Part shown: in pieces, positions 4,011-42,833 of the stretch
Layout of the letters: each line of letters starts with the position of its first letter
How positions within the stretch are numbered: position 1 is the first letter of the stretch
Source of the DNA: a plasmid
Sequence record: NZ_CP072215.1
Direction: 5' to 3' (one strand)
Length of the DNA stretch: 64,000 nucleotides
Notes under the pieces: generated by a model
The model's database searches: none
What the model saw: the letters and a program-made list of their open reading frames with translations, nothing else
What the model was told of the DNA's origin: nothing
Position numbers and translations under genes: made by a program

Positions 4011-4125
4011 GTGTATCCTTTTCCCATGCCGGTCATACCGTTAGAACTGATTGATAAGTATGATGCGTATGTTGGCCGGTATGTCTATCTTTGTGGCAAT
4101 GAAAACAGAGAGAGGATTGATTTAC
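4011..4125. repeat. ~110-bp direct repeat, copy 1 (copy 2 at 20557..20668, ~90% identical)
   Basis: CCGGTCATACCGTTAGAACTGATTGATAAGTATGATGCGTATGTTGGCCGGTATGTCTATCTTTGTGGCAATGAAAACAGAGAGAGGATTGATTT seen at both loci. Contains a TAtcTTTG (-7-like) motif. Confidence 0.7.
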
Positions 4126-10841: not shown

Positions 10842-11678
10842 ATGGAACAGGGAGAAATCATATTATACCAGCCGGATGAAGCGGTCAGGTTGGAAGTGAG
10901 GCTGGAAGATGAAACCGTTTGGCTGACACAGGCGCAAATTGTGGATCTTTTTCAATCCAGCAAAGCAAATATAAGCGAGCATATAAAAAACATATATGAT
11001 CAGAAAGAATTAGAGGAAAGTTCAACTGTTCGGGATTTCCGAACAGTTCGACAGGAAGGCAAACGGCAAGTGATGCGCAATCTGACTTATTACAATTTGG
11101 ATGCGATCATATCCATTGGGTTTCGTGTCAATAGTAAAAGAGGTATTTTATTTAGGCAATGGGCGAATAAGGTTTTAAAGGACTATCTTTTAAAAGGGTA
11201 TTCCATTAATAAACGTTTGTCAGAACTTGAAAGGACTGTCGCTCAACATACCGAGAAGATAGATTTTTTTGTGCGTACTGCCTTGCCCCCGGTCGAAGGC
11301 ATTTTTTATAACGGCCAGATTTTCGATGCGTACAAGTTCGCTACCGATCTGGTAAAGTCGGCCAGGCGTTCGATCGTGCTTATCGACAACTATGTGGACG
11401 AAACGGTCTTGCTCATGTTGAGTAAACGCAGCGTCGGTGTCTCGGCCACCATTTACACCCAGCGTATCACGCAGCAACTCCAACTTGATCTTGACAGGCA
11501 TAACAGCCAGTACCCACCTATCGACATCAGGACGTACCGGGACAGTCACGACCGTTTCCTGATCGTTGATGAAACGGACGTGTACCATATCGGAGCCTCG
11601 TTAAAGGATCTGGGGAAAAAGATGTTCGCTTTCTCAAAGCTGGATATTCCGGCGGCTGTGATTACTGACCTGTTATAA
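10842..11678 (+). CDS. RhuM-family virulence/DNA-binding protein
   Basis: N-terminal ILYQPDEAVRLEVRLEDETVWLTQAQI and C-terminal YHIGASLKDLGKKMFAFSKL blocks typical of RhuM/ORF6N-type proteins. Confidence 0.8.
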   Translation: MEQGEIILYQPDEAVRLEVRLEDETVWLTQAQIVDLFQSSKANISEHIKNIYDQKELEESSTVRDFRTVRQEGKRQVMRNLTYYNLDAIISIGFRVNSKRGILFRQWANKVLKDYLLKGYSINKRLSELERTVAQHTEKIDFFVRTALPPVEGIFYNGQIFDAYKFATDLVKSARRSIVLIDNYVDETVLLMLSKRSVGVSATIYTQRITQQLQLDLDRHNSQYPPIDIRTYRDSHDRFLIVDETDVYHIGASLKDLGKKMFAFSKLDIPAAVITDLL

Positions 11679-11919: not shown

Positions 11920-12558
11920 ATGAATGTGGTTATTTATTCACGTGTAAGCTCGCAGTCGGCCAGGCAATCGACCGAACGGCAGGTTGTCGATCTGGAGAGG
12001 TTCGCAGCCGGACGGGGGTACGAGGTGACGGCGGTCTTTGAGGAAAAGATAAGCGGACGAAAGGCCAATATCGAACGCCCGGTTTTAAGCCGTTGCCTGG
12101 AATACTGCACAGATCCGCAGAACCGGGTGGATATGTTGTTGCTGACCGAGATCTCACGCCTGGGGCGTTCAACCCTGGAGATCCTAAAGTCACTCGATAC
12201 GCTGCACACGCATAAAATATGCGTGTATATTCAAAACCTGAACCTGGAAACGTTACGGCCGGACAAGACGGTAAACCCCTTGTCCTCTCTGATCACTACC
12301 CTGTTGGGGGAACTGGCCGCGATCGAACGCCAGGGGATCATCGACCGCCTTAATAGCGGACGGGAGTTGTACATCCAGAAAGGGGGCAGGCTGGGACGGA
12401 AGCCGGGAAGCCGGAAAACGGCCGAACAGAGGAAAGAGGAATACCGGGAGGCGATCGCCTTGTTAAAGAAAGGCTACTCGATCCGGAACGTGGCGAAGCT
12501 CACGGGAAAGGCCGTTTCGACGATACAACAAGTAAAAAAAGACTTCATTAGTAGCTGA
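11920..12558 (+). CDS. serine recombinase (resolvase/invertase family) with C-terminal HTH
   Basis: Catalytic YSRVSS (Ser10), ISRLGRS motif, C-terminal YSIRNVAKLTGKAVSTIQQV HTH. GC content clearly above flanks. Confidence 0.9.
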   Translation: MNVVIYSRVSSQSARQSTERQVVDLERFAAGRGYEVTAVFEEKISGRKANIERPVLSRCLEYCTDPQNRVDMLLLTEISRLGRSTLEILKSLDTLHTHKICVYIQNLNLETLRPDKTVNPLSSLITTLLGELAAIERQGIIDRLNSGRELYIQKGGRLGRKPGSRKTAEQRKEEYREAIALLKKGYSIRNVAKLTGKAVSTIQQVKKDFISS

Positions 12559-17608: not shown

Positions 17609-18556
17609 TTAGAACCCAACACCTCTCTTGCGCTTAACTTTCTTCCTTCTGCGAAGTATATCCACCATTTCCTGATTGGCTTCCGCATCAGCAGTGTTAT
17701 AAGATGAGCCACTGCTTTTTAGCAATCCCCAAGAGCCGTTGAACAACTCGCTTTGTGCCGTGCCGGACGGTGCGCTTGGTGTAGCCGTTTCATATATTCC
17801 GGCTGTTATTCCCATACGTTCCCTGCATCTGTTGTGCTGCAAAGCCGCGTCAATCTTGGAATAACTGAAACGCCTGTCCACTTTGGAGCCGTTGAAATGG
17901 TAGCCATTCATGGAGAATACAACACCCTGCACCTCGCTGGTCTGCCCCTTATGCTTGAAATGTACTTCCACTCCCTGCCGTTTCAGGTTGGCGATAAGCA
18001 CGTTCCAGTTGCCGCATCTGCCGACTTCCATTTTGATGATGTCGTAAAGCGCATATTTCGTCCTGTCTGGCTCTTTCAGGCGGTTGCGTTTGACATTGTC
18101 CTTTCCGCCAGCCATATGCAAGCCGTATTTCAAGGTCAATTCCTTGCAGATGCGGGTACTGCGCAGACGCTCGTGCCTGTCCGATATGGTATTGCCGTTG
18201 TTGTCTATGCGGTTGAAAGCAATATGCACGTGCGGATGCTCCTTGTCGAAATGCTGGGCGATGAAGAACTGCGTATTCTTGATTCCCATCCGTTCCATAT
18301 ATTCAAGCGCGATGCCTGCCATGATACGGTTCGTCAGCCGTAACTCATCCTCTTTGGAAAAACTCAACGCGATATGTCCGACAGGTTTTGTCACCTTATC
18401 GTTCATCCGTGACTGGGCATTGAAACTCATGGCGATAGTTTCCAGATTTTCCATAAACAAGCCTTCGCTTGCTACTATCTGCGTATCCTTCTTCTTGTCG
18501 ATGATGTAATCCACCGCACCCTTGAAGTCGCTTCCTTTTACGATTTTCGCCATCAT
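17609..18556 (-). CDS. mobB: relaxase/mobilization nuclease (MobA/VirD2 superfamily; Bacteroides MobB-like)
   Basis: Motif HPHVHIAFNRID (HxH) and N-terminal VGHIALSF block; 315 aa. Confidence 0.85.
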   Translation of the reverse strand: MMAKIVKGSDFKGAVDYIIDKKKDTQIVASEGLFMENLETIAMSFNAQSRMNDKVTKPVGHIALSFSKEDELRLTNRIMAGIALEYMERMGIKNTQFFIAQHFDKEHPHVHIAFNRIDNNGNTISDRHERLRSTRICKELTLKYGLHMAGGKDNVKRNRLKEPDRTKYALYDIIKMEVGRCGNWNVLIANLKRQGVEVHFKHKGQTSEVQGVVFSMNGYHFNGSKVDRRFSYSKIDAALQHNRCRERMGITAGIYETATPSAPSGTAQSELFNGSWGLLKSSGSSYNTADAEANQEMVDILRRRKKVKRKRGVGF

Positions 18557-18945
18557 ATCCCTATCTTGGTTATAAGTTCATGAATCCTTGCCACTGCCAC
18601 CTTGCAGTCCCACCGTTCATCGTGGAAGCCTCCGGCGTTTGCCTTACGCGCAAGCTGGTTGAGATTGTTAGCCATGCCGCAGAGTTGGCGGATGTATCCG
18701 GCATGTTCCTCCGACAGCCGTTCTTTCACATGACCGTTACGGAAACATTCCCTCATGTACTCGCTTGGTGATACGCCCGCCTCATGCGATCGTGTCAGCA
18801 GGCGGAAGTAGTCGGCTGCCGTCATTTTCACTGCGATACGGTATTTCAGTTTCTCGGTTGCTGTTAATTCTTTGTATTTTCTTACCTGCCTCAAATCCGC
18901 AACTAAGCCCTTCAACGTCCTTCTTGCGTGTACACGTCCTCTCAT
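18553..18945 (-). CDS. mobA: MobC-family relaxosome accessory protein (Bacteroides MobA-like)
   Basis: Conserved LCGMANNLNQLARKAN motif. 4-nt overlap with the relaxase gene. Confidence 0.8.
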   Translation of the reverse strand: MRGRVHARRTLKGLVADLRQVRKYKELTATEKLKYRIAVKMTAADYFRLLTRSHEAGVSPSEYMRECFRNGHVKERLSEEHAGYIRQLCGMANNLNQLARKANAGGFHDERWDCKVAVARIHELITKIGI

Positions 18946-18968
18946 TACTGAATTATCAGATAAATTGA

Positions 18969-18990
18969 GGCAGAAACACCCACTTCTGCC
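18969..18990. promoter_or_regulatory. inverted repeat GGCAGAA-N8-TTCTGCC upstream of the mob operon; candidate oriT hairpin
   Basis: Only clear inverted repeat in the ~115 bp between mobA and the IS1380 remnant. Confidence 0.25.
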
Positions 18991-19059
18991 TACAACATCC
19001 CCTTACCCCACAATGCGACTTGAGACAATACGCAGTATCATACCCATAAGTTGTAGGCG

Positions 19060-20301
19060 TTATCCAAAATCAGTCTGAAAAATATCTGCGTAAGCATTGT
19101 TACAGGTATAGATATTCAGCACATACCGCCTTGATGTCCTGATCCACTTGGCTGGTACAGAGATAAACCTGAAGACAAACGCTTTTATGCGACTTGTTGC
19201 ATTGAGTCCGAACCTCTTTACGTCAAGTCTTTGGATAATGGCCTTGTAGAAGTTACGGATAAGTGCTGTAAGAAGAAGGAACACAGTGTTCTCGGCCATG
19301 AAGGATTTGGGCAATCTGTCCCACCCGAAACCATTGTTCATATCATCAAAGATACGTTCCTTTCCTCCACGAAGGTTATAGAACTCGACAATTTCTCTTA
19401 CGGAAGATTCATAGTCGTTAGTCAGGATACAACGGTATGTGTATTCTCCTTCCCAAAGATCCTGCACACCATCCATCCGTTTCTGTCTTTGAATCACAAG
19501 TCGGTATGCTTTACCCTTCCACTTCTCAACAAGGATAGAGTTCAATTCAAACTCAATGCCATTGATTTCCTCAGTCTTCCAGCCTCTGAGAGCAAATATG
19601 TCATTGTAGAGCGAACTGCAGCGGTTAGTGCGGATATAGAAGGACTTGCAGTGTTTCTCTATTTCCTCCACGATTTCCTCGGAACATGATCCGCAATCAG
19701 CTCTGAAACGATTGATAGTGAGCCTGTTCTGTTCAAATCTCTCAAAGAACCTCTTCAGCGTGTCCTTCTGATGAAAACGAAGGTTTTCGTTAAGCCAGAT
19801 GAGCAGAGCTAAGTTTACTTAAGCTCTGCCATGGCGAGAAAACGTGCCATGAAATGGAACTTTTGTGTTACCATCGCTATTCTCAATGCCAACAATCAAG
19901 TCACCAATAACCGCCACGCCAGGGCGATAACCAGAGAACTTCTTGTATGTAGGCTTTGCATCATACTTCTCACCCTCTTTCAGTTGGTCAGATGCAAACA
20001 TACAATTGAGCAGTAAAGTATTGAGAGTGTCAGCCGTGTTGAAATCGTAGTTCTTACCCGTATCTGATGTGTATGAGATGTTTTCTTGCGTCAGTTCCTT
20101 TATCGCTCTGAGGATAGTATCAGAACTACAAGTATGAAGTGTCGGATGAAGCGAGAGATGGTTCATCAAATGAGTAGTGACATCCTCAATACATGAGCCA
20201 CCACAGAAGTAGATACTCATGAGAGAACGGATGATTTCGCTGTACTGATAACCTAACGATCTACACCTTAGACCGAGGGTTGAGTCGATTACAGATGACA
20301 A
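19060..20301 (-). pseudogene. IS1380-family transposase split into two ORFs (N-part 19819..20301, C-part 19060..19671); the N-part has a TTG start and lacks the usual N-terminal ~25 aa
   Basis: SSVIDSTLGLRCRSLGYQYSEIIRSLMSIYFCGGSCIEDV block and a C-terminal DDE region. 147-bp gap and frame break between the parts. Confidence 0.65.
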
Positions 20302-20556: not shown

Positions 20557-20668
20557 TCCTTTTCCCATACCGGTCATACCGTTAAAACTGATTGATAATT
20601 ATGACGCGTATGTTGGCCGGTATGCCTATCTTTGTGGCAATGAAAACAGAGAAAGGATTGATTTTGTA
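20557..20668. repeat. ~110-bp direct repeat, copy 2 (see 4011..4125); 5' region of the Rep-like gene
   Basis: ~90% identical to 4011..4125. Contains the TAtcTTTG motif ~45 bp upstream of the ATG at 20678. Confidence 0.7.
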
Positions 20669-22394: not shown

Positions 22395-22500
22395 CTTCTG
22401 TATCCGAATTAGTTTTTCAGGGCGTTCCCTTCTGACCGGGCTATTCGTTGCAAGTCCTCGTTACCCTCCAGGCTTTTCCCTGCTATCCCTAACGCTCTAC
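22395..22500. repeat. GC-rich conserved element, copy 2 (see 4235..4320)
   Basis: GGGCGTTCCCTTCTGACCGGGCT...GCAAGTCCTCG...CTGCTATCCCTAACGC. Confidence 0.5.
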
Positions 22501-22767
22501 GCTCCGGCTATGCCGGAAGAGAGGTATGATGATTTTTTCCTGAACTGATAGGAACATTGCGAAGGTAGGCGTGGCCGGAACGCCCGATATTGAAAAGCCA
22601 AATCTCCATCCTCCCATTCCGGGAGGTAGTATTTACCAGTTCAATCCCGTTCTGATCCGTCTTTCCCGCTTTCTCTTCAATGCACTGTTCCCAATCAGTT
22701 GAGGAAAAATTTATGGTTGGGGCGACAAGCGATGTTTGCGAGTATTAATCTTTTAATTTTTGGCAGT

Positions 22768-23394
22768 ATGAAAACGAAGAGAACCGTATTTGAAGTGAAT
22801 GACGTTTATCGGGTGATGGAAAACAGCGAGTTGATTTATACCTTGACGAACAGTGAGAAACTGAAACGTGAAGAATATAAGTATGAACAGATGGAAATAG
22901 AAGGATTGTGCTTGTCTGATGTACTGGAAACACTAACACCCAGCCGTAAAAAAGTCGCTTATGCGGCGATTGAGCTATATAAACGGCTGAAAGAAGGGCA
23001 AGTTGAAAGTCCTGCGCTTTTATCCAGCAATAATGTTTATAAAATGATGCATCCTGTTTTGTGCGATATAGCTACTGAAGAGATGTGGGTGCTGTTGCTG
23101 AACAGTTCGTCCAAACTCATCCGTAAAGTCCGTATCTCATGCGGCGGGATAAATACCGCCCCTGTGGATATACGGGTTATCATGAAGCAGGCATTGTATT
23201 ATAACGCCGTATCTTTTATCATGGTACATAACCACCCATCAGGAGCACGCAAGCCCAGCAGTGCGGATGACCGCTTGACGGAAGCAGTTAAAAAAGCCGC
23301 TGAAACATTAGACATCCGTTTGGTTGACCATGTGATTGTGGCAGGCAATAACTATTATAGCTATGCGGACGAGGGAAGATTGCAAAATAGGTAA
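22768..23394 (+). CDS. radC: RadC-like JAB/MPN-domain protein
   Basis: HNHPSG motif and helix-hairpin-helix-like N region. ORF from 22699; likely start MKTKRT. Confidence 0.85.
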   Translation: MKTKRTVFEVNDVYRVMENSELIYTLTNSEKLKREEYKYEQMEIEGLCLSDVLETLTPSRKKVAYAAIELYKRLKEGQVESPALLSSNNVYKMMHPVLCDIATEEMWVLLLNSSSKLIRKVRISCGGINTAPVDIRVIMKQALYYNAVSFIMVHNHPSGARKPSSADDRLTEAVKKAAETLDIRLVDHVIVAGNNYYSYADEGRLQNR

Positions 23395-23981: not shown

Positions 23982-24204
23982 CAGGTTAATTTCTTGATTG
24001 TATCGGATTGCCCTTTCTGTGGGCTGCCTCCCCCGGCTTCTTTCCTCCGATCCGAGTCCGGCTTTTTGCTCGGCAAAGGTTTCGGGATTCCGCAAATGGC
24101 AAGTTACGGCCATGCGCCTTTACTGTATGGAAAATAACGATGAAGAAGTGTCTTCCCGACATTTTCCATAAGTGAAACTTGGCTTATTGCTTGCAATCCA
24201 GACC

Positions 24205-24325
24205 TTGATATGCCGAAAAAAGGCTCAGAACTCAGATGGGGAATGACATCAAAAAAAAGGTCGGCTGACCAAAGACCTTCCCGATACAAAAAATGAAAAG
24301 GTCTTGAATCTAGCTGAAGAATAAA
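24205..24325. repeat. partial copy (3'-terminal ~120 bp) of repeat family A
   Basis: AAAAAAGGCTCAGAACTCAGATGGGGAATGA...GGTCTTGAATCTAGCTGAAGAATAA matches the 3' end of the 29973/33044/42146 elements. Ends 5 bp before the gene start. Confidence 0.6.
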
Positions 24326-24329
24326 TCAG

Positions 24330-24728
24330 ATGTTCAACTTAAATAATGCTAATATGGAAAATTTGATTACACAAATCAACAAAGAGAGATTGGTTAATAG
24401 CGACACAGCTCTTATGATGAAGGAATTATACTATTACGTGCCTTGTGAGTATTGGTATGACAAACAGGATAGGCTACGCACCGATATTGAGGGAAGGAAT
24501 ACCCCGATGTATATGTGCGAGTGCCCGACACTGGCAGCATGTATCCAATGGATGATACAGACTCGTGAATATACGTTTCAAACAGAACAAAACGTGGCGG
24601 TCTGGCATGTGGTTGTGAGGGCTGGAGATTATGTGTTGTATGACTCCGAAAGTAATGCGGACGCTTTTTGTTGTTTGGAAGAAGCATTGGAAAAAGCGGT
24701 ACAGGAGTGCATGGAGTTATTGTATTAA
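24330..24728 (+). CDS. hypothetical protein
   Basis: 132-aa ORF. Preceded by the family-A 3' fragment and followed by a strong terminator. Confidence 0.5.
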   Translation: MFNLNNANMENLITQINKERLVNSDTALMMKELYYYVPCEYWYDKQDRLRTDIEGRNTPMYMCECPTLAACIQWMIQTREYTFQTEQNVAVWHVVVRAGDYVLYDSESNADAFCCLEEALEKAVQECMELLY

Positions 24729-24840: not shown

Positions 24841-25437
24841 TTATTTGTTATTTTTGTTCTCGGATTTCAGCGCAATTCCATTCCTTCTTAATAGGCGATA
24901 TACTGTTCCGCTACTGCCTATGTTTAATATTTTCTGTATCTCCCTTACCGGCGTTCCGGATTCATAGAGTTGGATGCAGCTTTTCTGCTTGGCGATGTTG
25001 TTTTTGTTGATAAGTGTCTTTCTGCCGAATTTGACACCTTTTTCCTTGGCGATTCTTCTGCCTTCTTGGGTTCTCTCATAGATAAGGTCTCTTTCAAACT
25101 GAGCGAAAGCACCGAGAATGTTGTTCATCAGTTGGCCGATTGCGCCTTCCGTACTGATGTTGTCTTGCAGTGAGGTGAATTGGATGCCCCTATTCTTGAA
25201 ATCTTCCAATAGCGTAAGGATATTCTTCAGCGAACGGCCAAGCCGGTCCAGCTTATATACGACAAGTGTGTCGCCTTCCCGGAGAAAGCTCAGGCAGGCA
25301 TCCAGTTCCGGGCGGTTTTGTTGACGTCCGGTCATTTTCTCAGAGAAGATTTTCTCGCATCCGGCAGCCTTCAACGCTTCCAGTTGCATATCCAGATGTT
25401 GTTCCTTGGTGGAAACACGGGCATATCCTATTTTCAT
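24841..25437 (-). CDS. DNA invertase, Hin/Gin/Pin-type serine recombinase
   Basis: MKIGYARVSTKEQ (catalytic Ser), LDRLGRS motif, C-terminal Hin-like HTH (IGSSGTVYRLL); 198 aa. Confidence 0.9.
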   Translation of the reverse strand: MKIGYARVSTKEQHLDMQLEALKAAGCEKIFSEKMTGRQQNRPELDACLSFLREGDTLVVYKLDRLGRSLKNILTLLEDFKNRGIQFTSLQDNISTEGAIGQLMNNILGAFAQFERDLIYERTQEGRRIAKEKGVKFGRKTLINKNNIAKQKSCIQLYESGTPVREIQKILNIGSSGTVYRLLRRNGIALKSENKNNK

Positions 25438-25824: not shown

Positions 25825-26677
25825 TCATAATACATCAATTATCGTATGGGCAGGAAGTTCCAGTTTGGAGAAAGCAAACATTTTCTTGCCCAAATCCTTT
25901 AGCGATGCCCCAATATGATATACTTCCGTATTATCAATGATTAAGAAGCGGTCATGACTACTTTTGTAGGTTCTAGCTTCAATGGGAGGATATTGGTCAT
26001 TGTGTTTGTTTAAATCAAGTTGGAGCTGTGCGTTTATTTTGTGTATAAATAGTAGCTGATACTCCACTGTTTCGTTTGCTCAACATGAGTAACACGGATT
26101 CATCTACATAGTTGTCGATAAGCACAAGTGAGCATTTGGCAGACTTTATTAAATCTGTAGCAAACTTATACGCATCGAATATCTGACCGTCAAAGAATAT
26201 ACCTTCCACCGGAGGCAATGAGGTGCGTACAAAGAAGTCTATCTTTGCATCATGTTCAGCAATGGTTTTCTCTATTTGGAAGAATCTATTGTTCATTCTA
26301 TATTCCATGTCATTGAGCCGTTGGTTTATAGAATAACCTTTCAATAAATATTCTTTTAAAATTTTATTTGCCCATTGCCTGAATTGCGTACCTCTTACGC
26401 TTTTAACTCTGTATCCAACTGAAATTATTACGTCTAGACTAAAGAACTTGACAGGCTTATCGGAATTAGCAATGTGCAAAAAATGCACATTGCTTTTCTC
26501 TTCCAATTCCTTTTCCTTAAAAACATTATTTATATGTTTGGTAATAACGGTTCTGTCACGTTGAAAAAGTTCTGCTATCTGCGCTTGTGTGAGCCAAACG
26601 GTTTCATCTTCTAAACGTACTTCCAACCTTACAGCTTCATCCGGTTGGTATAGTATGATTTCTCCTTGCTTCTCCAT
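25825..26677 (-). pseudogene. RhuM-family gene disrupted by a frameshift near 26015..26067
   Basis: ORFs 26015..26677 and 25825..26067 together align end-to-end with the intact 10842..11678 product (~75% aa identity). The frame changes after ATIYTQ. Confidence 0.75.
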
Positions 26678-29972: not shown

Positions 29973-30659
29973 TTTTGCGTTCACGCAGTATTCTTTCCCA
30001 CCCTCCCCTTCATCGGAATGACTGTTCTCATTTCCGGTTTACCCGTAGTCATCCGCTATGCGGCTGATTATGGGCAAACCAGAAAAGAGAAGTTCCAAAC
30101 GTGGGCGGGATTGCAATGGTCATCATCCGGAGCTTCGGCATTGCCGAAACAACCTCCTTCTTCCGTATTGCAGCCCCGTCCTTTTACCGTTTGTCCCGGC
30201 AGTCCGTTGCTAACCCGTTCCCCCCTGCCACTTGTGGCAGGGAGATAGGAATACGGTTTTGCAGGCAAAACCGTATGGCTTGTTTTACTTTCCGTACTGC
30301 CCTTTTCCTAGTTTTCTGCCTCCCTTAATGTGCGTTTTTCATAGCCCCATCTGAGACCCTTTGTTTTTGAACGGCAAATTTATTTCGGTGGATGGATACG
30401 AAAGAGTTCCGGTCTTCGCCCTTTGTCCCGAAAAAAATAACGCCGGACGGCTTCGCTGTCCCCAACATTTTTTGTCGTCCAAAACTTTTCTTAATCCCTC
30501 CTTCCTTATTGTTGTGTGCCGTAAAAAAAAGGCTCATAAACTCAGATGGGGCATGAAAGCTCAAAAAAAAAGTCGGCAGAAAGAAAAGGCCATCCCGGAA
30601 AGGGGTTTTAAAAAAAGGTCTTTAAATCTAGCTGAAGCATAAAATTAGAAGTTTAACAA
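29973..30659. repeat. repeat family A, copy 1: ~690-bp hairpin-rich non-coding element ending 20 bp before a gene start
   Basis: Near-identical to 33044..33711 and 42146..42833. Starts TTTGCGTTCACGCAGTATTCTTTCCCACCC, ends TCTAGCTGAAGCATAA(AATTAGAAGTTTAACAA). Confidence 0.85.
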
Positions 30660-30678
30660 TCCCAAAAAACAACGAGTT

Positions 30679-31158
30679 ATGTCACGAGTACACTATTTAG
30701 AAGGAGATTATGAACAGTTAGTTATTAATGAAACGATAGACGGTCTTTTTTCCAGTTATCGTATAGACCGCAATTCATTGCCAAAAGGATTTTTCCTTTA
30801 TGAGATTAGATGGGATGACAGCTTATCTTCATTGGCAGAGATTAGCCCCTCTGTGGTGGTGAATCATGCAGGTTCATTCATTACAAAGTCACCCCTTGAA
30901 TTTGATGCAAACAATAGCATACGGATAACCTATACCAATTTTATCGAGTTCTGCCAGTTTGGTGAGTGGGCTTATGAGAAACTGGCTGTATTGGATTGTA
31001 ATTCCGGTAATGTTGCGGTGATAAGCCCAGACAGGAGATTGCAGACCACTGAAGAGATTGAGATTTTTTTGAGTGGGCATTGTGGCTATCATCTGAGTGA
31101 GATTAATTGGATGGTGATGAAAGGCGATGTGCTGTTTTTGAACGAGAACGATTTTTAA
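30679..31158 (+). CDS. hypothetical protein
   Basis: 159-aa ORF; first gene after A copy 1. Confidence 0.5.
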   Translation: MSRVHYLEGDYEQLVINETIDGLFSSYRIDRNSLPKGFFLYEIRWDDSLSSLAEISPSVVVNHAGSFITKSPLEFDANNSIRITYTNFIEFCQFGEWAYEKLAVLDCNSGNVAVISPDRRLQTTEEIEIFLSGHCGYHLSEINWMVMKGDVLFLNENDF

Positions 31159-33043: not shown

Positions 33044-33711
33044 TTTGCGTTCACGCAGTATTCTTTCCCACCCTCCCCTTCATCGGAATGACTGTTCTCA
33101 TTCCCGGTTTACCCGTAATCATCCGCTATGCGGCTGATTATGGGTAAACCGGAAAAGAGAAGTTCCAAACGTGGGCGGGATTGCAATGGTCATCATCCGG
33201 AGCTTCGGCATTGCCGAAACAACCTCCTTCTTCCGTATTGCAGTCCCTTCCTTTTACCGTTTGTCCCGGCAGTCCGTTGCTAACCCGTTCCCCCCTGTCA
33301 CTTGTGGCAGGGAGATAGGAGTATGGTTTTGCTTGCAAAACCGTATGGCTTGTTTTACTTTCCGTACTGCCCTTTTCCTTGTTTTCTGCCTCCCCTAATG
33401 TGCTTTTTTCATAGCTCCATCTGAGAGCCTTTGTTTTTGAACGGCAAATTTATTTCGGTGGATGGATACGAAAGAGTTCCGGTCTTCGCCCTTTGTACCG
33501 AAAAAAATAACGCCGGACGGCTTCGCTGTCCCCAACATTTTTTGTCGTCCAAAACTTTTCTTAATCCCTCCTTCCTTATTGATGCGTGCCGTAAAAAAAA
33601 GGCTCATAAACTCAGATGGGGCATGAAAGCTCAAAAAAAAAGTCGGCAGAAAGAAAAGGCCATCCCGGAAAGGGGTTTAAAAAAAGGTCTTTAAATCTAG
33701 CTGAAGCATAA
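33044..33711. repeat. repeat family A, copy 2
   Basis: Near-identical to copy 1. Ends 26 bp before the ATG at 33737. Confidence 0.85.
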
Positions 33712-33736
33712 GTTTAATTTTAATAGATAAAAGACT

Positions 33737-35054: not shown

Positions 35055-36418
35055 TTTTACTTAATTGTTTTACCTTTGTAAAACATTAGTGTCCCATTAA
35101 AATTGGGACGAATTAAAAATTAAATAAACTTGGCCCATTTGGTCCGAATCGTTCTTTGTCATTTTGAAATTTAGTTTTATCAAAGAGGTCTCTCAGATGA
35201 GTCTTATCAGTCAATGAGATGCTCAGTATTTGTAACACTTCATATGTACTTCTGTTCAGTTGCATATCGTGTTGAATGATTGCCACCAAACAGTAAGCGC
35301 ATATAGCAGCATATATCTGTATTCGAACAGCATTCTCTGTAGTTCCCCAAAATCTTTTGATTTTAAGGTGCTGCTTGAGCCATTTGAAAAACAGCTCTAC
35401 CTGCCAGCGATTTTTATAAAGTTCAGCAACTTGAAGCGCAGATATATGCATCGCATTGGTTATGAATGTAAATTCTCGTTCTTGTTCTTCATCCCAATAT
35501 TTAACCAATCTAAGTGGCTCTGGATAATATTGTTTAGGATAGAATCCTGTCAGAAATACACTTGCGTCTGAAAGCACATTCTTAGGCAGCCTACGTTTCC
35601 ATTGGATGGATTTGTACCCGAGATTCTTTTTTGCTCTGACAACAAAGTAGGCTTCAATTTGATGAATTTTATACAGTATTTTGAAGTTGTTATAACCGCG
35701 GTCAAAGATGTAATAAGAGCTTGGTTCATAAGGAATTTCAATCATAACTTTAGAATCGTGTACGGATGCTTCCGTGATATGAAAGAATGCAGGAATCTGT
35801 GTTTCCACATCATATAATGTATGCACTTTGATACCACCTTTCTTTTTGCGGAATTTTGCCCACCAAAAGACTGAAAGGCACAGGTCAATAGTAGTCGAAT
35901 CGAAAGCATAAACGTTACCGCCAAGTTTGAAAATATGATTAGCACACTTTTGTCGTGCTTCGCTAACCAGGTAGTAAGCATATTCTTCAAAGATGTGATA
36001 GTCTCTATCTTGATTTGCTCTTGCCAGCGATGACTTTGATACATTTTTACCCATTCCTAAATGATAACATTTGGAATGATGAGCTTCAAGAGCAACTATC
36101 AAATCTCGCAGACTTTCACGATTAGAAAGTTGACCAAACATCAAAGCAAGTAGTTGATTCCAGCAGGTGAAGTGCTTCACATATTTATCACCATCATACT
36201 TGGTGACTATGCGGTTAAACTTACTTCGATTCAGAAATGAAGCCAATTGAGCGAAAACGTATTTGTCTTGGAACATATGCCATCGGATTAATCTGATGCA
36301 AAGCTACAAATTCAAGTCCGTTCGCTCGGAAAATCGCTGTAACTAACTAAATTTCAAATATTTCAAAGAACTCTTTTAGATTTTAATGGGACAACAATGT
36401 TTGTAAAAGGTAAAACAA
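35055..36418. mobile_element. IS4-family insertion sequence (~1.36 kb) with ~38-bp imperfect terminal inverted repeats
   Basis: Left end TTGTTTTACCTTTGTAAAACATT-AGTGTCCCATTAAAAT; right end is its reverse complement with 3 mismatches. Single transposase ORF inside. Confidence 0.7.
35113..36276 (-). CDS. IS4-family DDE transposase
   Basis: 387 aa. Conserved C-terminal YKNRWQVELFFKWLKQHLKIK block. Confidence 0.85.
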   Translation of the reverse strand: MFQDKYVFAQLASFLNRSKFNRIVTKYDGDKYVKHFTCWNQLLALMFGQLSNRESLRDLIVALEAHHSKCYHLGMGKNVSKSSLARANQDRDYHIFEEYAYYLVSEARQKCANHIFKLGGNVYAFDSTTIDLCLSVFWWAKFRKKKGGIKVHTLYDVETQIPAFFHITEASVHDSKVMIEIPYEPSSYYIFDRGYNNFKILYKIHQIEAYFVVRAKKNLGYKSIQWKRRLPKNVLSDASVFLTGFYPKQYYPEPLRLVKYWDEEQEREFTFITNAMHISALQVAELYKNRWQVELFFKWLKQHLKIKRFWGTTENAVRIQIYAAICAYCLVAIIQHDMQLNRSTYEVLQILSISLTDKTHLRDLFDKTKFQNDKERFGPNGPSLFNF

Positions 36419-36712
36419 TATGCGTTTTTCAGATACAGAGAACAATATGACCTTTTGCATAGGTGTGTGTTGGTTAGGAACTCCAAATATGGAGTCGTTG
36501 CAGAAAATAATGATGAACTTGAATATTATTGATAAGGATGGAAACAATGGAAGCTAATGAACTGATGCGATATGCCTATGAATTACTGCAAGGGCATTCG
36601 AATGAAGAATGTGCCCGAATATTAAGAGAAGTGGTGGCCGAGTGTCAGGTGTGTATAAAGAACTGTGAAGAAGGTGTTTTCGAAAATATGCTAAAGTAAT
36701 AACAACAAGAAT

Positions 36713-37641: not shown

Positions 37642-37694
37642 AGAATATGTGAAGTGAAAATAGGGGGAAGTTTATCCCCCAATGGTAAGGTTGT

Positions 37695-38905
37695 TTTTTG
37701 CGTCCACTTAGTTTTTTCCCACCCACCCTTTCAGCGGAGTGACTGCCCGGCAGTCTGTTGCTTACCCATATGTCCTAGCCTTTTAGGGCTGTAGATAGGT
37801 AGTTGGATATTTCGCTGCCAAATCGGCAGTCCGCTTCAATCGTTTGCTTGCTTTTCTCCGAGTGGAGCCTTTCTGCTTTTCCGGTGGTGTAATCTTCTTT
37901 TATTGGAAACAGGTGTAGTGGCTGTATGCCTGTGTGGTTATGTTCTCCCGCAGAATCCGCAAGTCAGTTCTTCCGTTGCAGCTTTTCATTTTATCGTGCA
38001 GTCACTTTTTTCGATACGTGGAATATGATATGCTTCATTCTTCGGCTTCATTTTTTTAAAAGGAATTGCAGATGTTTCTTCCGGTGTGTCGATAGGCGGC
38101 TGACCATCTTTTCGGGATGTGCCATGCTTGCTGTCTAACCGGTTGTTTTTTGCATCCTTTCCAAACCTGTTACTGATTTTCAAGTTTTGTCTTTTTCATA
38201 TCATTTTTTAGGGAAGTCAAATCATTTTCCGTTGCAAATATAGATTGTTGCTAACCCCTTTTACGGGGATAAGGGGACGATTCACAAACACCACGTTGTT
38301 ATTCGTCTGAAATCTTCCTTTTTTTGCCTTGCACAAAAAGCGTATTTAACCCGAATTATTCGTTGCCATCTTCACCAATAAAAAAGTTACAAATCTTCCT
38401 TTTTCCGGCCAGCATAAAAAGAGTATTTATATCTTTTTTCATGGTGTCCCCCAAAGCCAACAATCAGTTATTGCACTGTAAAATTGATTAATTAACTTCT
38501 AAAAAATCAGAGATATGAAAAAGATTGAAAATTCATTCGCAGTAACAGGCAGGATTTGTAGGGATGCAGAAATCCATTTATTCGAAATAGTAAAGGTTGC
38601 ACACTTCTCTATTGTGGTCAGTCGCATAGGCAAGATAAATGAAGAAAAAACATTTGTTTCCTCTGTTATGAAAGTTGAAGCCTAGAGTAAGATGGAAGAC
38701 CGCTATGCTTTTTGGATACTGCAAAAAGATGTACTGATTACCGTTGAAGGCTACTTTAAGCCGGAAGAATGGACGGATTCTAAAAGTGGGGAGAAACGTA
38801 ACCGCATTGTGATGGTAGCTACTAAGTTCTACCCGACTCCGGAAAAATAAGAACCCCCGGACTAAAAAGAAAAAGCAATCAAACGATTGAAGCGGCACAA
38901 GGTCG
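37695..38905. repeat. segmental duplication, copy 1: family-B structured element + ssb-leader region + decayed ssb (deletion variant)
   Basis: Near-identical to 40735..42105 apart from an internal ~120-bp deletion and the decayed ssb. Confidence 0.75.
38520..38852 (+). pseudogene. ssb-like gene copy with in-frame stop and multiple substitutions
   Basis: Aligns with 41699..42097 but carries a TAG (GAAGCCTAGAGT) and divergent codons. Not present as an ORF in the track. Confidence 0.6.
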
Positions 38906-40734: not shown

Positions 40735-42105
40735 TTTCCCACCCACCCTTTCAGCGGAGTGACTGTCCCCGTTTCAGGATTTCTCATAGTCACTCGCAGG
40801 CTCCGTGATTGTGTGAAATCCAGGAATGGGGAAGGCAAAGGAGAGAGGCATATCCGGTCTGCTTTCGGAGCTTCGGCCACATCGAGACAACCTCTTTCCG
40901 GCGGCTATGCCACTCTCCTTTTATTTGCCCGGCAGTCTGTTGCTTACCCATATGCCCCAGCCTTTTAGGGCTGTATATAGGTAGTCGGATATTTCGCCGC
41001 TAAATCGGCAGTCCGCTTCAATCGTTTGCTTGCTTTTCTCCGAGTGGATGCCTTTCTGTTTTTCCGGTTGTATAATCTTCTTTTTCCGGAAACAGTTGTA
41101 GTGGCTGTATGCCTGTATGGTTATGTTCTCCCCGCAGAATCCGCAAGTCTGTTCTTCCGTTGCAGCCTTTCATTTTATCGTGCAGTCACTTTTTTCGATA
41201 CGTGGAATATTGTATGCTTCATTCTTCGGCTTCATTTTTTTAAAAGGAATTGCAGAGGTTTCTTCCGGTGTGTCGATAGGCGGCTGACCATATTTTCGGA
41301 ATGTGCCATGCTTGCTGTCTGACCGGTTGTTTTTTGCATCCTTTCCAAACCTGTTGCTGATTTTCAAGTTTTGTCTTTTTCATATCATTTTTTAGGGAAG
41401 TCAAATCATTTTCCGTTGCAAATATAGATTGTTGCTAACCCCTTTTACGGGGATAAGGGGACGATTCACAAACACCACGTTGTTATTCGTCTGAAATCTT
41501 CCTTTTTTTGCCTTGCATAAAAAGCGTATTTAACCCGAATTATTTGCTGCCATCTTCACCAATAAAAAAGTTACAAATCTTCCTTTTTCCGGCCAGCATA
41601 AAAAGAGTATTTATATCTTTTTTCATGGTGTCCCCCAAAGCCAACAATCAGTTATTGCACTGTAAAATTGATTAATTAACTTCTAAAAAATCAGAGATAT
41701 GAAAAAGATTGAAAATTCATTCGCAGTAACAGGTTTTATCGGTAAGGATGCAGAAATCCGTAGTTTTGAAACAGCAAGCGTAGCACGCTTTTCTATCGCG
41801 GTCAGCCGTGCAGACAAGACAGGTGAAGAAACCTCTTATGTTTCCGCTTTCATGGGGATTGAAGCCTGGAGAAAGAATGAAGCACTGGATTCCTTCGATG
41901 TATTGAAAAAAGGTGAGCTGATAACCGTTGAAGGCTACTTTAAGCCGGAAGAATGGACGGATTCTAAAAGTGGGGAGAAGCGTAACCGCATTGTGATGGT
42001 AGCCACCAAGTTTTATCCGGCTCCGGAAAAAGAAGAAGAAAAACCGGATCAGCCTAAACAGAAGGCTGTCTCTAAAAAGAAAAAAGCAAGCAAATGATTG
42101 AAGCG
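40735..42105. repeat. segmental duplication, copy 2: family-B element (full length) + leader + intact ssb
   Basis: See 37695..38905. Its family-B element retains a segment homologous to family A (GGAGCTTCGGCCACATCGAGACAACCTC). Confidence 0.75.
41699..42097 (+). CDS. ssb: single-stranded DNA-binding protein (OB-fold, conjugative-element type)
   Basis: FAVTGFIGKDAEIRSF...ARFSIAVSR...WRK...GELITVEGYFKPEEWTDSKSGEKRNRIV pattern and acidic/K-rich tail. Confidence 0.7.
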   Translation: MKKIENSFAVTGFIGKDAEIRSFETASVARFSIAVSRADKTGEETSYVSAFMGIEAWRKNEALDSFDVLKKGELITVEGYFKPEEWTDSKSGEKRNRIVMVATKFYPAPEKEEEKPDQPKQKAVSKKKKASK

Positions 42106-42145
42106 GCCTAGTGCCGCTTTTTTTTGCTACATATCCGAGAGTGTT

Positions 42146-42833
42146 TTTGCGTTCACGCAGTATTCTTCCCCACCCTCCCCTTCATCGGAATGACTGTTCT
42201 CATTCCCGGTTTGCCCGTAGTCATCCGCTATGCGGCTGATTATGGGCAAACCAGAAAAGAGAAGTTCCAAACGTGGGCGGGATTGCAATGGTCATCATCC
42301 GGAGCTTCGGCATTGCCGAAACAACCTCCTTCTTCCGTATTGCAGTTCCTTCCTTTTACCGTTTGTCCCGGCAGTCCGTTGCTAACCCGTTCCCCCCCTG
42401 TCACTTGTGGCAGGGAGATAGGAATACGGTTTTGCAAGCAAAACCGTATGGTTTGTTTTACTTTCCGTACTGCCCTTTTCCTTGTTTTCTGCCTCCCCTA
42501 ATGTGCTTTTTTCATAGCTCCATCTGAGATCCTTTGTTTTTGAACGGCAAATTTATTTCGGTGGATGGATACGAAAGAGTTCCGGTCTTCGCCCCTTTGT
42601 CCCGAAAAAAATAACGCCGGACGGCTTCGCTGTCCCCAACATTTTTTGTCGTCCAAAACTTTTCTTAATCCCTCCTTCCTTATTGTTGTGTGCCGTAAAA
42701 AAAAGGCTCATAAACTCAGATGGGGCATGAAAGCTCAAAAAAAAAGTCGGCAGAAAGAAAAGGCCATCCCGGAAAGGGGTTTTAAAAAAAGGTCTTTAAA
42801 TCTAGCTGAAGCATAAAATTAGAAGTTTAACAA
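42146..42833. repeat. repeat family A, copy 3
   Basis: Near-identical to copies 1 and 2. Ends 19 bp before the ATG at 42852. Confidence 0.85.

Follow-up and report, generated by a model that had tools for sequence, protein, structure and literature searches.

In regard to repeated non-coding regions that precede the establishment genes of transferable plasmids, several systems have been described. The plasmids F, ColIb-P9 and pESBL carry several near-identical hairpin promoters before leading operons, including ssb, which were verified by rapid amplification of 5′ cDNA ends (5′ RACE). In these Frpo/ssi elements of the IncF and IncI1 groups, the transferred strand folds into long stem-loops that restore host promoter boxes and is itself the template of the downstream genes; in double-stranded DNA, the promoter no longer serves the gene. 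In the pLS20-family plasmids of Bacillus, the EGeRS1 elements are inverted-repeat-rich regions of 420-750 bp, with a GC content above that of the plasmid and 4-6 copies per plasmid, located directly before establishment operons (ardC, methylases). They consist of an optional 5′ branch and a conserved 3′ branch of ~325 nt, lack a gene-facing sigma-A promoter and block read-through. Transfer of pLS20 delivers the non-template strand, and since no promoter could be detected in the fold, the authors rejected a single-strand promoter. A further case is EGeRS2/Reg576 of p576, where repeated regions with strong gene-facing promoters and operators precede establishment operons, and expression is transient after transfer. 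The present study concerns a stretch of 64,000 nucleotides of plasmid DNA (sequence record NZ_CP072215.1; hereafter the window), which matches a circular 76-kb plasmid from Bacteroides zhangwenhongii (NZ_CP059857) with essentially full identity. It contains three near-identical non-coding elements of about 690 bp (family A, copies A1 to A3) and the related family B, placed before plus-strand gene cassettes. We propose, with a probability of roughly 60%, that these elements, as modelled here, would be the Bacteroidales analogue of the Frpo/ssi single-strand promoters, fitted to the Bacteroidales sigma factor.

The likeness to Frpo/ssi includes the non-coding nature of the elements, their presence in several near-identical copies (Frpo1 and Frpo2 are 92% identical) and the position of each copy before an establishment operon, ssb and methylase genes being included in both cases. 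While single-strand promoters are known from E. coli plasmids, the elements described here are new in their promoter consensus (the Bacteroidales −7 box TAnnTTTG in place of the sigma-70 −35/−10 boxes), in their length (about twice that of Frpo/ssi, with an extra 5′ module), in their distance of at least 21 kb from the origin of transfer (oriT), and in the stem of family B, which spans the entire ssb gene. Sequence similarity to Frpo/ssi is not expected, because the hosts use different promoter consensus sequences. The anatomy of EGeRS1, known to us from its published description and compared as an analogy across phyla, is shared as well, from the size range, inverted repeats, GC content and copy number to the two branches and the position before establishment operons without a conventional gene-facing promoter. 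The difference from EGeRS1 lies in the canonical reversed box within the hairpin and in the transferred strand, which would here be the template, while EGeRS2/Reg576 differs by its gene-facing promoters, no gene-facing box being present here. Phage N4 virion RNA polymerase also starts at DNA hairpins and is aided by SSB, the single-stranded DNA-binding protein; however, those hairpins are tiny (5-7 bp) and are used by a phage polymerase on supercoiled DNA, whereas host sigma-factor boxes on transferred single strands are proposed here. In the literature, no report was found of single-strand promoters in Bacteroides or Bacteroidota, nor any description of a gene-spanning, co-evolving ssb hairpin, and the pMMCAT preprint makes no mention of the repeats described here.

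By BLAST, A1 (29974-30659), A2 (33044-33729) and A3 (42146-42833) are 96-98% identical across 683-689 nt, with 85-100% identity in gapless blocks, and their description as near-identical in an earlier note on this DNA is thereby borne out. The same note listed a 3′ fragment of a near-identical copy at 24205..24325; this is instead a whole but diverged 3′ module, at 24004-24338, with 64% identity to A1. As had been observed, the A-type copies stop directly 5′ of genes, 19-26 nt before the start codons at 30679, 33737, 42852 and 24330, and the first gene after each copy opens a plus-strand cassette. The plus strand of the plasmid holds a run of cassettes, in which LPD28 is accompanied by an N6 methylase and PcfK and PcfJ come after a small protein; the others are PRTase-SLOG, an HTH-HipA pair and ssb. 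In PLSDB, the element was found in 18 plasmids of Bacteroides, Phocaeicola and Parabacteroides, at up to 7 places per record. A pattern derived from the 3′ module matched at 24 loci in genomes and at more than 104 in gut metagenomes. The earlier suggestion to examine whether copies precede genes is answered by these relatives, since a complete open reading frame (ORF) begins no more than 80 nt from the 3′ end of the element in 118 of 129 scored copies. First genes after the 3′ module are RadC/JAB, LPD28, PRTase, the small protein followed by PcfK/PcfJ, DUF2958 and an unknown 132-aa protein.

Comparison with plasmids of ~75% identity shows that the conserved core of the element is its 3′ part of ~330 nt, while the 5′ half is frequently missing in relatives, an organization that had been overlooked. 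Many relatives appear without the 5′ module in a strict-pattern search, which relied on a C-rich box/palindrome pattern so strict that it missed the variant present in the window itself. The ORFs embedded in the A elements have no Pfam match, and in diverged copies their reading frames are disrupted by insertions and deletions that are not multiples of three, in accordance with the earlier view that they are conserved only through the DNA. Likewise, no known RNA family fits, as had been supposed: at gathering thresholds Rfam gave no match anywhere in the window, and at E<=1 only chance matches of the microRNA type were obtained.

Promoters of Bacteroides follow the consensus TAnnTTTG at −7, a motif also employed in published work, accompanied by a weaker TTTG at −33. 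Each A and B element contains a single perfect TAnnTTTG, located on the minus strand and pointing away from the gene, 280-304 nt upstream of the cassette. No perfect gene-facing TAnnTTTG is present within 700-960 nt upstream of the A and B cassettes. The box is a good predictor of promoters in the window: as an internal control, eight ordinary operon starts hold nine perfect gene-facing boxes, 19-51 nt before the start codon. Among the 129 scored copies, the perfect reversed box is found at a fixed position in 103, and the remaining 26 mostly belong to two subfamilies with AACCTTTG in the same orientation. Alignment of the A-type box shows TA and TTTG to be invariant or nearly so, while the two n positions are AA or CC. 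In the folded minus strand, the box heads the 3′ arm, where the inner helices meet the long outer stem, and is followed by ~35 paired nucleotides. A generic search for boxes with a complementary arm retained 5 of the 57 boxes in the window, namely those of the A and B elements, all on the minus strand; in 0.98 Mb of related loci with 1113 boxes, the same search yielded 79 anti-oriented cases against 1 co-oriented. In the modelled fold, the −7 box of the hairpin is conserved and stands where a promoter reading into the downstream gene would have it, and no clear −33 TTTG accompanies it. Because the paired 5′ arm runs on into the cassette, a polymerase recognizing the box would make plus-sense mRNA from the minus strand.

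Folding provides a further line of evidence. Compared with shuffled sequences, the whole A element has z-scores of −10.6 as plus-strand DNA, −8.5 as minus-strand DNA and −8.2 as plus-strand RNA, and the hairpins listed in the earlier note are all present. In sliding DNA folds of 300 nt, no other part of the window is as stable as the A copies; on either strand they reach −58 to −66 kcal/mol, the mean being −32. The identical minus-strand hairpin is predicted in all 10 representative lineages (−35 to −49 kcal/mol). Direct consensus folding of the alignment of 38 non-redundant 3′ modules collapsed owing to a few truncated rows; the consensus structure of the 10 sequences was therefore transferred onto the 38 modules and the pairs were then counted. 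In this way, 94.4% of cells are paired, compared with 41-59% in controls with slid partners, and compensatory changes occur in 15 pairs and 95 cells, compared with 8-11 pairs and 21-31 cells in the slid controls. None of 500 shuffles matches the observed pairing and covariation values, and the covariation analysis proposed earlier has thus come out in favour of a conserved structure. As both values exceed those of the slid and shuffled controls, the comparison of sequences indicates that single-strand folding of the 3′ module is under selection.

Family B presents a different hairpin that includes a gene. Its 5′ module is homologous to the 5′ module of A (68% identity), and the earlier impression that family B keeps the structure with a different sequence is confirmed, the hairpins being retained through compensatory changes. 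In copy B2, the central ~450 nt (40985-41434) are a non-coding reverse complement of the ssb region, from its 5′ untranslated region to its terminator. This inverted complement, which the earlier note had overlooked, shows 64-65% identity with many insertions and deletions and is recognizable at the DNA level only; a protein-level search for an inverted ssb copy within family B found no similarity. The minus strand of B2 is predicted to fold as one giant hairpin of −233 kcal/mol. The arrangement of left arm and ssb occurs in at least eight lineages, including one of Prevotella type reached independently through SSB homologues, with arms of 420-500 nt and 61-65% identity. The complementarity of an arm to its own ssb scores 72-120 (44 in one lineage), whereas cross-lineage scores are mostly 13-58, with up to 80 for close relatives, and shuffles do not exceed 25. 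Left arms are unrelated between lineages, although the ssb genes are 72% identical. Since a single shared duplication predicts equal own and cross scores, the arms, judged from these alignments, must co-evolve with ssb or be repeatedly remade in the at least eight lineages.

The reversed box of family B is located in the apex-proximal left arm, with AT, AA, AC, CC or TC at the two variable positions depending on the lineage. Its partner on the opposite arm is found ~42-50 nt before the ssb ATG whatever the length of the spacer (53-212 nt), a distance as at ordinary promoters. Covariation maintains a small hairpin immediately upstream of the box. Two tandem AATCTTCCTTTTT...AAAAAGnGTATT units (41494-41532 and 41575-41613) are also present in the apex spacer of the ssb hairpin and kept in all lineages examined. 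Copy B1 precedes an ssb pseudogene (38515-38895) with in-frame stops and 64% protein identity to the intact ssb at 41699. Taken together with family A, these features tentatively suggest, at somewhat below even odds, a phylum-specific class of single-strand promoters based on the −7 box TAnnTTTG, one form of which would provide ssb with a ~450-nt non-coding partner kept ~63% complementary via concerted evolution. If so, a quasi-duplex would be the template for ssb, the gene required first on incoming DNA, and the double-stranded state would be spared a perfect palindrome.

According to the model proposed here, conjugation would deliver the minus strand of the window to the recipient in single-stranded form. 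The core, ~210 nt long in each A element, would then fold into a long imperfect hairpin, and in family B the arm of ~450 nt would pair with the whole ssb gene. In double-stranded DNA, TAnnTTTG faces away from the gene; on the minus strand it heads the 3′ arm, and in the hairpin it would form the non-template strand, across from the arm that runs on into the cassette. Host RNA polymerase would start on the 5′ arm, at about 30523-30530, 33593-33600, 42697-42704 and 41655-41665, and read the transferred strand into the cassette genes (LPD28 with the methylase, PRTase-SLOG, ssb, PcfK/PcfJ). Synthesis of the complementary strand would finally abolish the hairpin and leave a promoter facing away from the gene. 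Expression of the cassettes would thus be early and transient, because the hairpin would be destroyed by second-strand synthesis.

The model depends on which strand is transferred. On its minus strand the window encodes a type IV secretion system of the Bacteroidetes type, a coupling protein, ArdC and SSB. The main relaxase and mobC are located outside the window, divergent from the tra operon, and the stretch that separates mobC from this operon contains a long inverted repeat, 20 nt away from the start of mobC, in what we take to be the oriT layout of RP4 type. It is known that the relaxase usually enters the recipient last (PMC11541004). From this rule and from the inverted repeat beside mobC we infer that the minus strand of the window is transferred and would serve as the template strand of all cassettes.

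Several observations weigh against such a reading. The strand polarity rests on the relaxase-last rule and the oriT layout, a literature search on transfer polarity at Bacteroides oriT sites found nothing usable, and a second relaxase (17609-18556), if used, would give the opposite polarity. The cassettes start ~21 kb or more from the putative oriT and behind the tra operon. Of the three roles considered in the earlier note, a single-strand promoter of Frpo/ssi type is the one favoured by the evidence, while the classical conjugative leading region in which it was placed is not borne out. The look-alike EGeRS1 of pLS20 has a non-template transferred strand, which implies that another mechanism exists for a similar anatomy. 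The 5′ half of the element plays no part in the proposed mechanism. No clear −33 TTTG is present, family A having a conserved TTTC 17 nt upstream of the box; the ordinary promoters of the plasmid are likewise without a consistent −33. A near-consensus gene-facing box, TAAAATTG, is found 28-36 nt before the ssb start, at 41663-41670 and 38479-38486. This box is conserved across lineages and may be a weak vegetative ssb promoter. Counts of G.T against A.C wobbles lean slightly towards the plus strand in the 3′ module and slightly towards the minus strand in the 5′ module, with an outcome that varies with the strand used for structure prediction, conserved wobbles on each strand, and a bias in the outer stem from the search pattern, in which the right arm was fixed.

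Alternatively, the elements could act, like EGeRS1, as a structured leader RNA of plus sense or as an insulator of transcription. The transcript would begin at a promoter that is unconventional or lies further upstream, and the RNA or DNA structure would stop read-through and gate the cassette by way of a further factor. This is the long 5′ leader among the roles suggested earlier, and it is kept here as an unlikely rival. The plus-strand RNA fold is strong (z=−8.2), the consensus energy of the 3′ module is slightly better on the plus strand, where some G.U pairs are conserved, and the anatomy is close to that of EGeRS1. However, neither within the elements nor upstream of them is there a conserved gene-facing promoter that could make such a leader, and the reversed −7 box and its motif-shaped conservation are left unexplained. 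In family B, the complete ssb coding region would be locked into a duplex if an RNA covered the two arms, and minimal elements lack the 5′ half.

The reversed box may also be considered as a conventional promoter in double-stranded DNA, driving a leftward non-coding RNA that regulates or silences the neighbouring cassette. In double-stranded DNA, a perfect −7 box probably works in the same way as those of the ordinary promoters of the plasmid. Such an RNA would hold one arm only, and neither the pairing and covariation between the arms nor the co-evolution of ssb and its arm would be explained. Furthermore, the family B RNA would be similar to the ssb mRNA instead of complementary to it, the small ORF of this RNA is not conserved, and direct reading of the sequence found no terminator following on the minus strand. 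We consider an antisense promoter rather improbable.

A promoter that faces away from its gene and lies between inverted repeats is also the signature of an invertible promoter (inverton) in the OFF state, as at Bacteroides capsule loci, flipped here by a serine recombinase of the plasmid. Like the replicons of Bacteroides invertons, the plasmid has recombinase genes, two serine recombinases of resolvase/invertase type (11920-12558 and 24841-25437), which are not adjacent to each element; a flip would place TAAATTTGCCGTAAAAAAAAGG before the gene, and the junction in the flipped state would read TTTGCCGTAAAAAA. Against this, none of the 129 A-type copies scored in the motif census of isolates and metagenomes is flipped, and all 79 hairpin-associated boxes of A and B type share one orientation. 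In PLSDB, the element flipped in silico has no full-length match of at least 99%, a result that excludes exact flipped copies only, as the query aligned straight through at ~81% because the interior of the element is nearly palindromic. That interior is a covarying hairpin, which an inverton does not need, and the arms of family B are long and imperfect. An inverton is accordingly very improbable.

Equally improbable are recombination scaffolds or decaying duplication relics without a role in expression, marking cassette boundaries or inverted pseudogene copies: the same module does stand before at least six unrelated first genes, cassette order differs among plasmids and the family B arm resembles a decayed inverted ssb copy, but the modules keep ~70% identity with compensatory changes and a fixed distance to start codons, each arm tracks its own ssb in the lineages compared, which shared ancestry alone cannot yield, and no terminal inverted repeats, target-site duplications or gene-unlinked copies occur among the A and B elements. 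The recombination hotspot of the earlier note consequently stands in a weak sense only, in that one module precedes many different cassettes. A miniature inverted-repeat transposable element or other non-autonomous transposon does not fit the observations, all copies being co-oriented and gene-linked; the two ends of the element are the palindrome with the C-rich box on one side and the leader on the other, and not inverted repeats.

In the human gut, few mobile elements are shared as widely as plasmids of this kind. If the elements are single-strand promoters, zygotic induction would be extended beyond Proteobacteria to a phylum with a different sigma-factor consensus, and the elements would mark candidate establishment or anti-defence genes (RadC/JAB, LPD28 with the methylase, PRTase-SLOG, PcfK/PcfJ, DUF2958). 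The reversed box would then be a read-out of the transferred strand from sequence only, and a reversed −7 box at the top of a hairpin arm would be a search rule for further promoters. The comparison may also help to explain the EGeRS1 elements of Bacillus plasmids.

The features of the A and B elements are collected in Table 1, together with a candidate third hairpin type upstream of RadC/JAB. The sequence of this hairpin is unrelated to A and B, its minus-strand fold has a z-score of −4.05 and its box stands directly before the 3′ arm. A 94%-identical plasmid retains the hairpin with compensatory changes at the apex, in a comparison confined to plasmids of at least 94% identity, the sole carriers.

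Table 1. Positions of the A-type and B-type elements and of the candidate third hairpin in the window.
Feature	Position	Strand	Remarks
A1, 5′ module	29973..30310	−	GC 51.5%; palindrome CTGCGTTCACGCAG 29974-29988; C-rich box CCCACCCTCCC 29997-30007; several hairpins
A1, left arm in window coordinates (3′ arm of minus-strand hairpin)	30340..30375	−	In the model, non-template downstream of the −7 box
A1, reversed Bacteroides −7 box (TAAATTTG on minus strand)	30375..30382	−	
A1, inner helices and hairpin apex	30383..30517	−	Compensatory changes concentrated here
A1, right arm (5′ arm of minus-strand hairpin), proposed template	30518..30555	−	Putative start in A-run ~30523-30530
A1, predicted 5′ untranslated region	30556..30678	+	Conserved closing stem 30573-30577/30631-30635; invariant block CTAGCTGAAGnATAA
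A2, full copy 5′ of PRTase-SLOG cassette	33044..33729	−	Reversed box 33445-33452; arm cores 33417-33445, 33588-33619
A3, full copy 5′ of small-protein/PcfK/PcfJ cassette	42146..42833	−	Reversed box 42548-42555; arm cores 42520-42548, 42692-42723
Diverged 3′ module 5′ of 132-aa gene	24004..24329	−	One-mismatch reversed box AACCTTTG, 24074-24081
B1: 5′ module partly deleted, left arm, reversed box 38235-38242, ssb pseudogene	37690..38895	−	
B2, 5′ module	40735..40984	−	68% identity to A 5′ module; C-rich box 40738-40748
B2, left arm, ssb reverse complement	40985..41434	−	Reversed box TATATTTG at 41419-41426
B2, spacer/apex, 207 nt	41435..41641	−	Small covarying hairpin and two tandem AATCTTCCTTTTT...AAAAAGnGTATT units
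B2, right arm: ssb 5′ untranslated region, ssb gene 41699-42097, terminator	41642..42138	+	Pairs with left arm
Candidate third hairpin type 5′ of RadC/JAB	22440..22770	−	One-mismatch reversed box TACCTTCG at 22560-22567

The 5′ module (~320 nt), common to families A and B, is built of the palindrome CTGCGTTCACGCAG, the C-rich box CCCACCCnCCC and several hairpins, which are retained via compensatory change. The 5′ boundary shared by A and B is sharp, the palindrome being followed by CCCACCC(T/A)CCC, which reads G-rich on the minus strand. Palindrome and box are found together at 29974-30007, 33044-33077 and 42146-42179, and the box alone at 37718 and 40738. In a B. fragilis plasmid (locus L003, 22694-23323), three tandem 210-nt units with the C-rich box are present in the 5′ part of one element. 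This boundary could serve as an operator or in recombination, or it could bind a primase or a protein; in the first case, the palindrome at the 5′ edge would be comparable to the operators of EGeRS2/Reg576. The module as a whole may insulate the cassette, terminate transcription or prime DNA synthesis.

Other repeats and mobile sequences are present in the window. The second relaxase is short (315 aa) and, with a MobC/NikA gene beside an insertion sequence remnant, occupies the region 17609-19671, which is probably an inserted mobilisable element. An insertion of the IS4 family (35064-36419) is located between cassettes, with a transposase at 35113-36276 and terminal inverted repeats of 40 nt. 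A direct repeat of 108 nt, 94% identical, is found at 4016-4123 and 20557-20664, the latter copy ending just 5′ of a 402-aa gene and overlapping its promoter region. Finally, two RhuM-family genes in opposite orientation (10848-11461 and 26040-26668), each adjoining a serine recombinase gene, form an inverted repeat of 72-75% identity ~15 kb apart.

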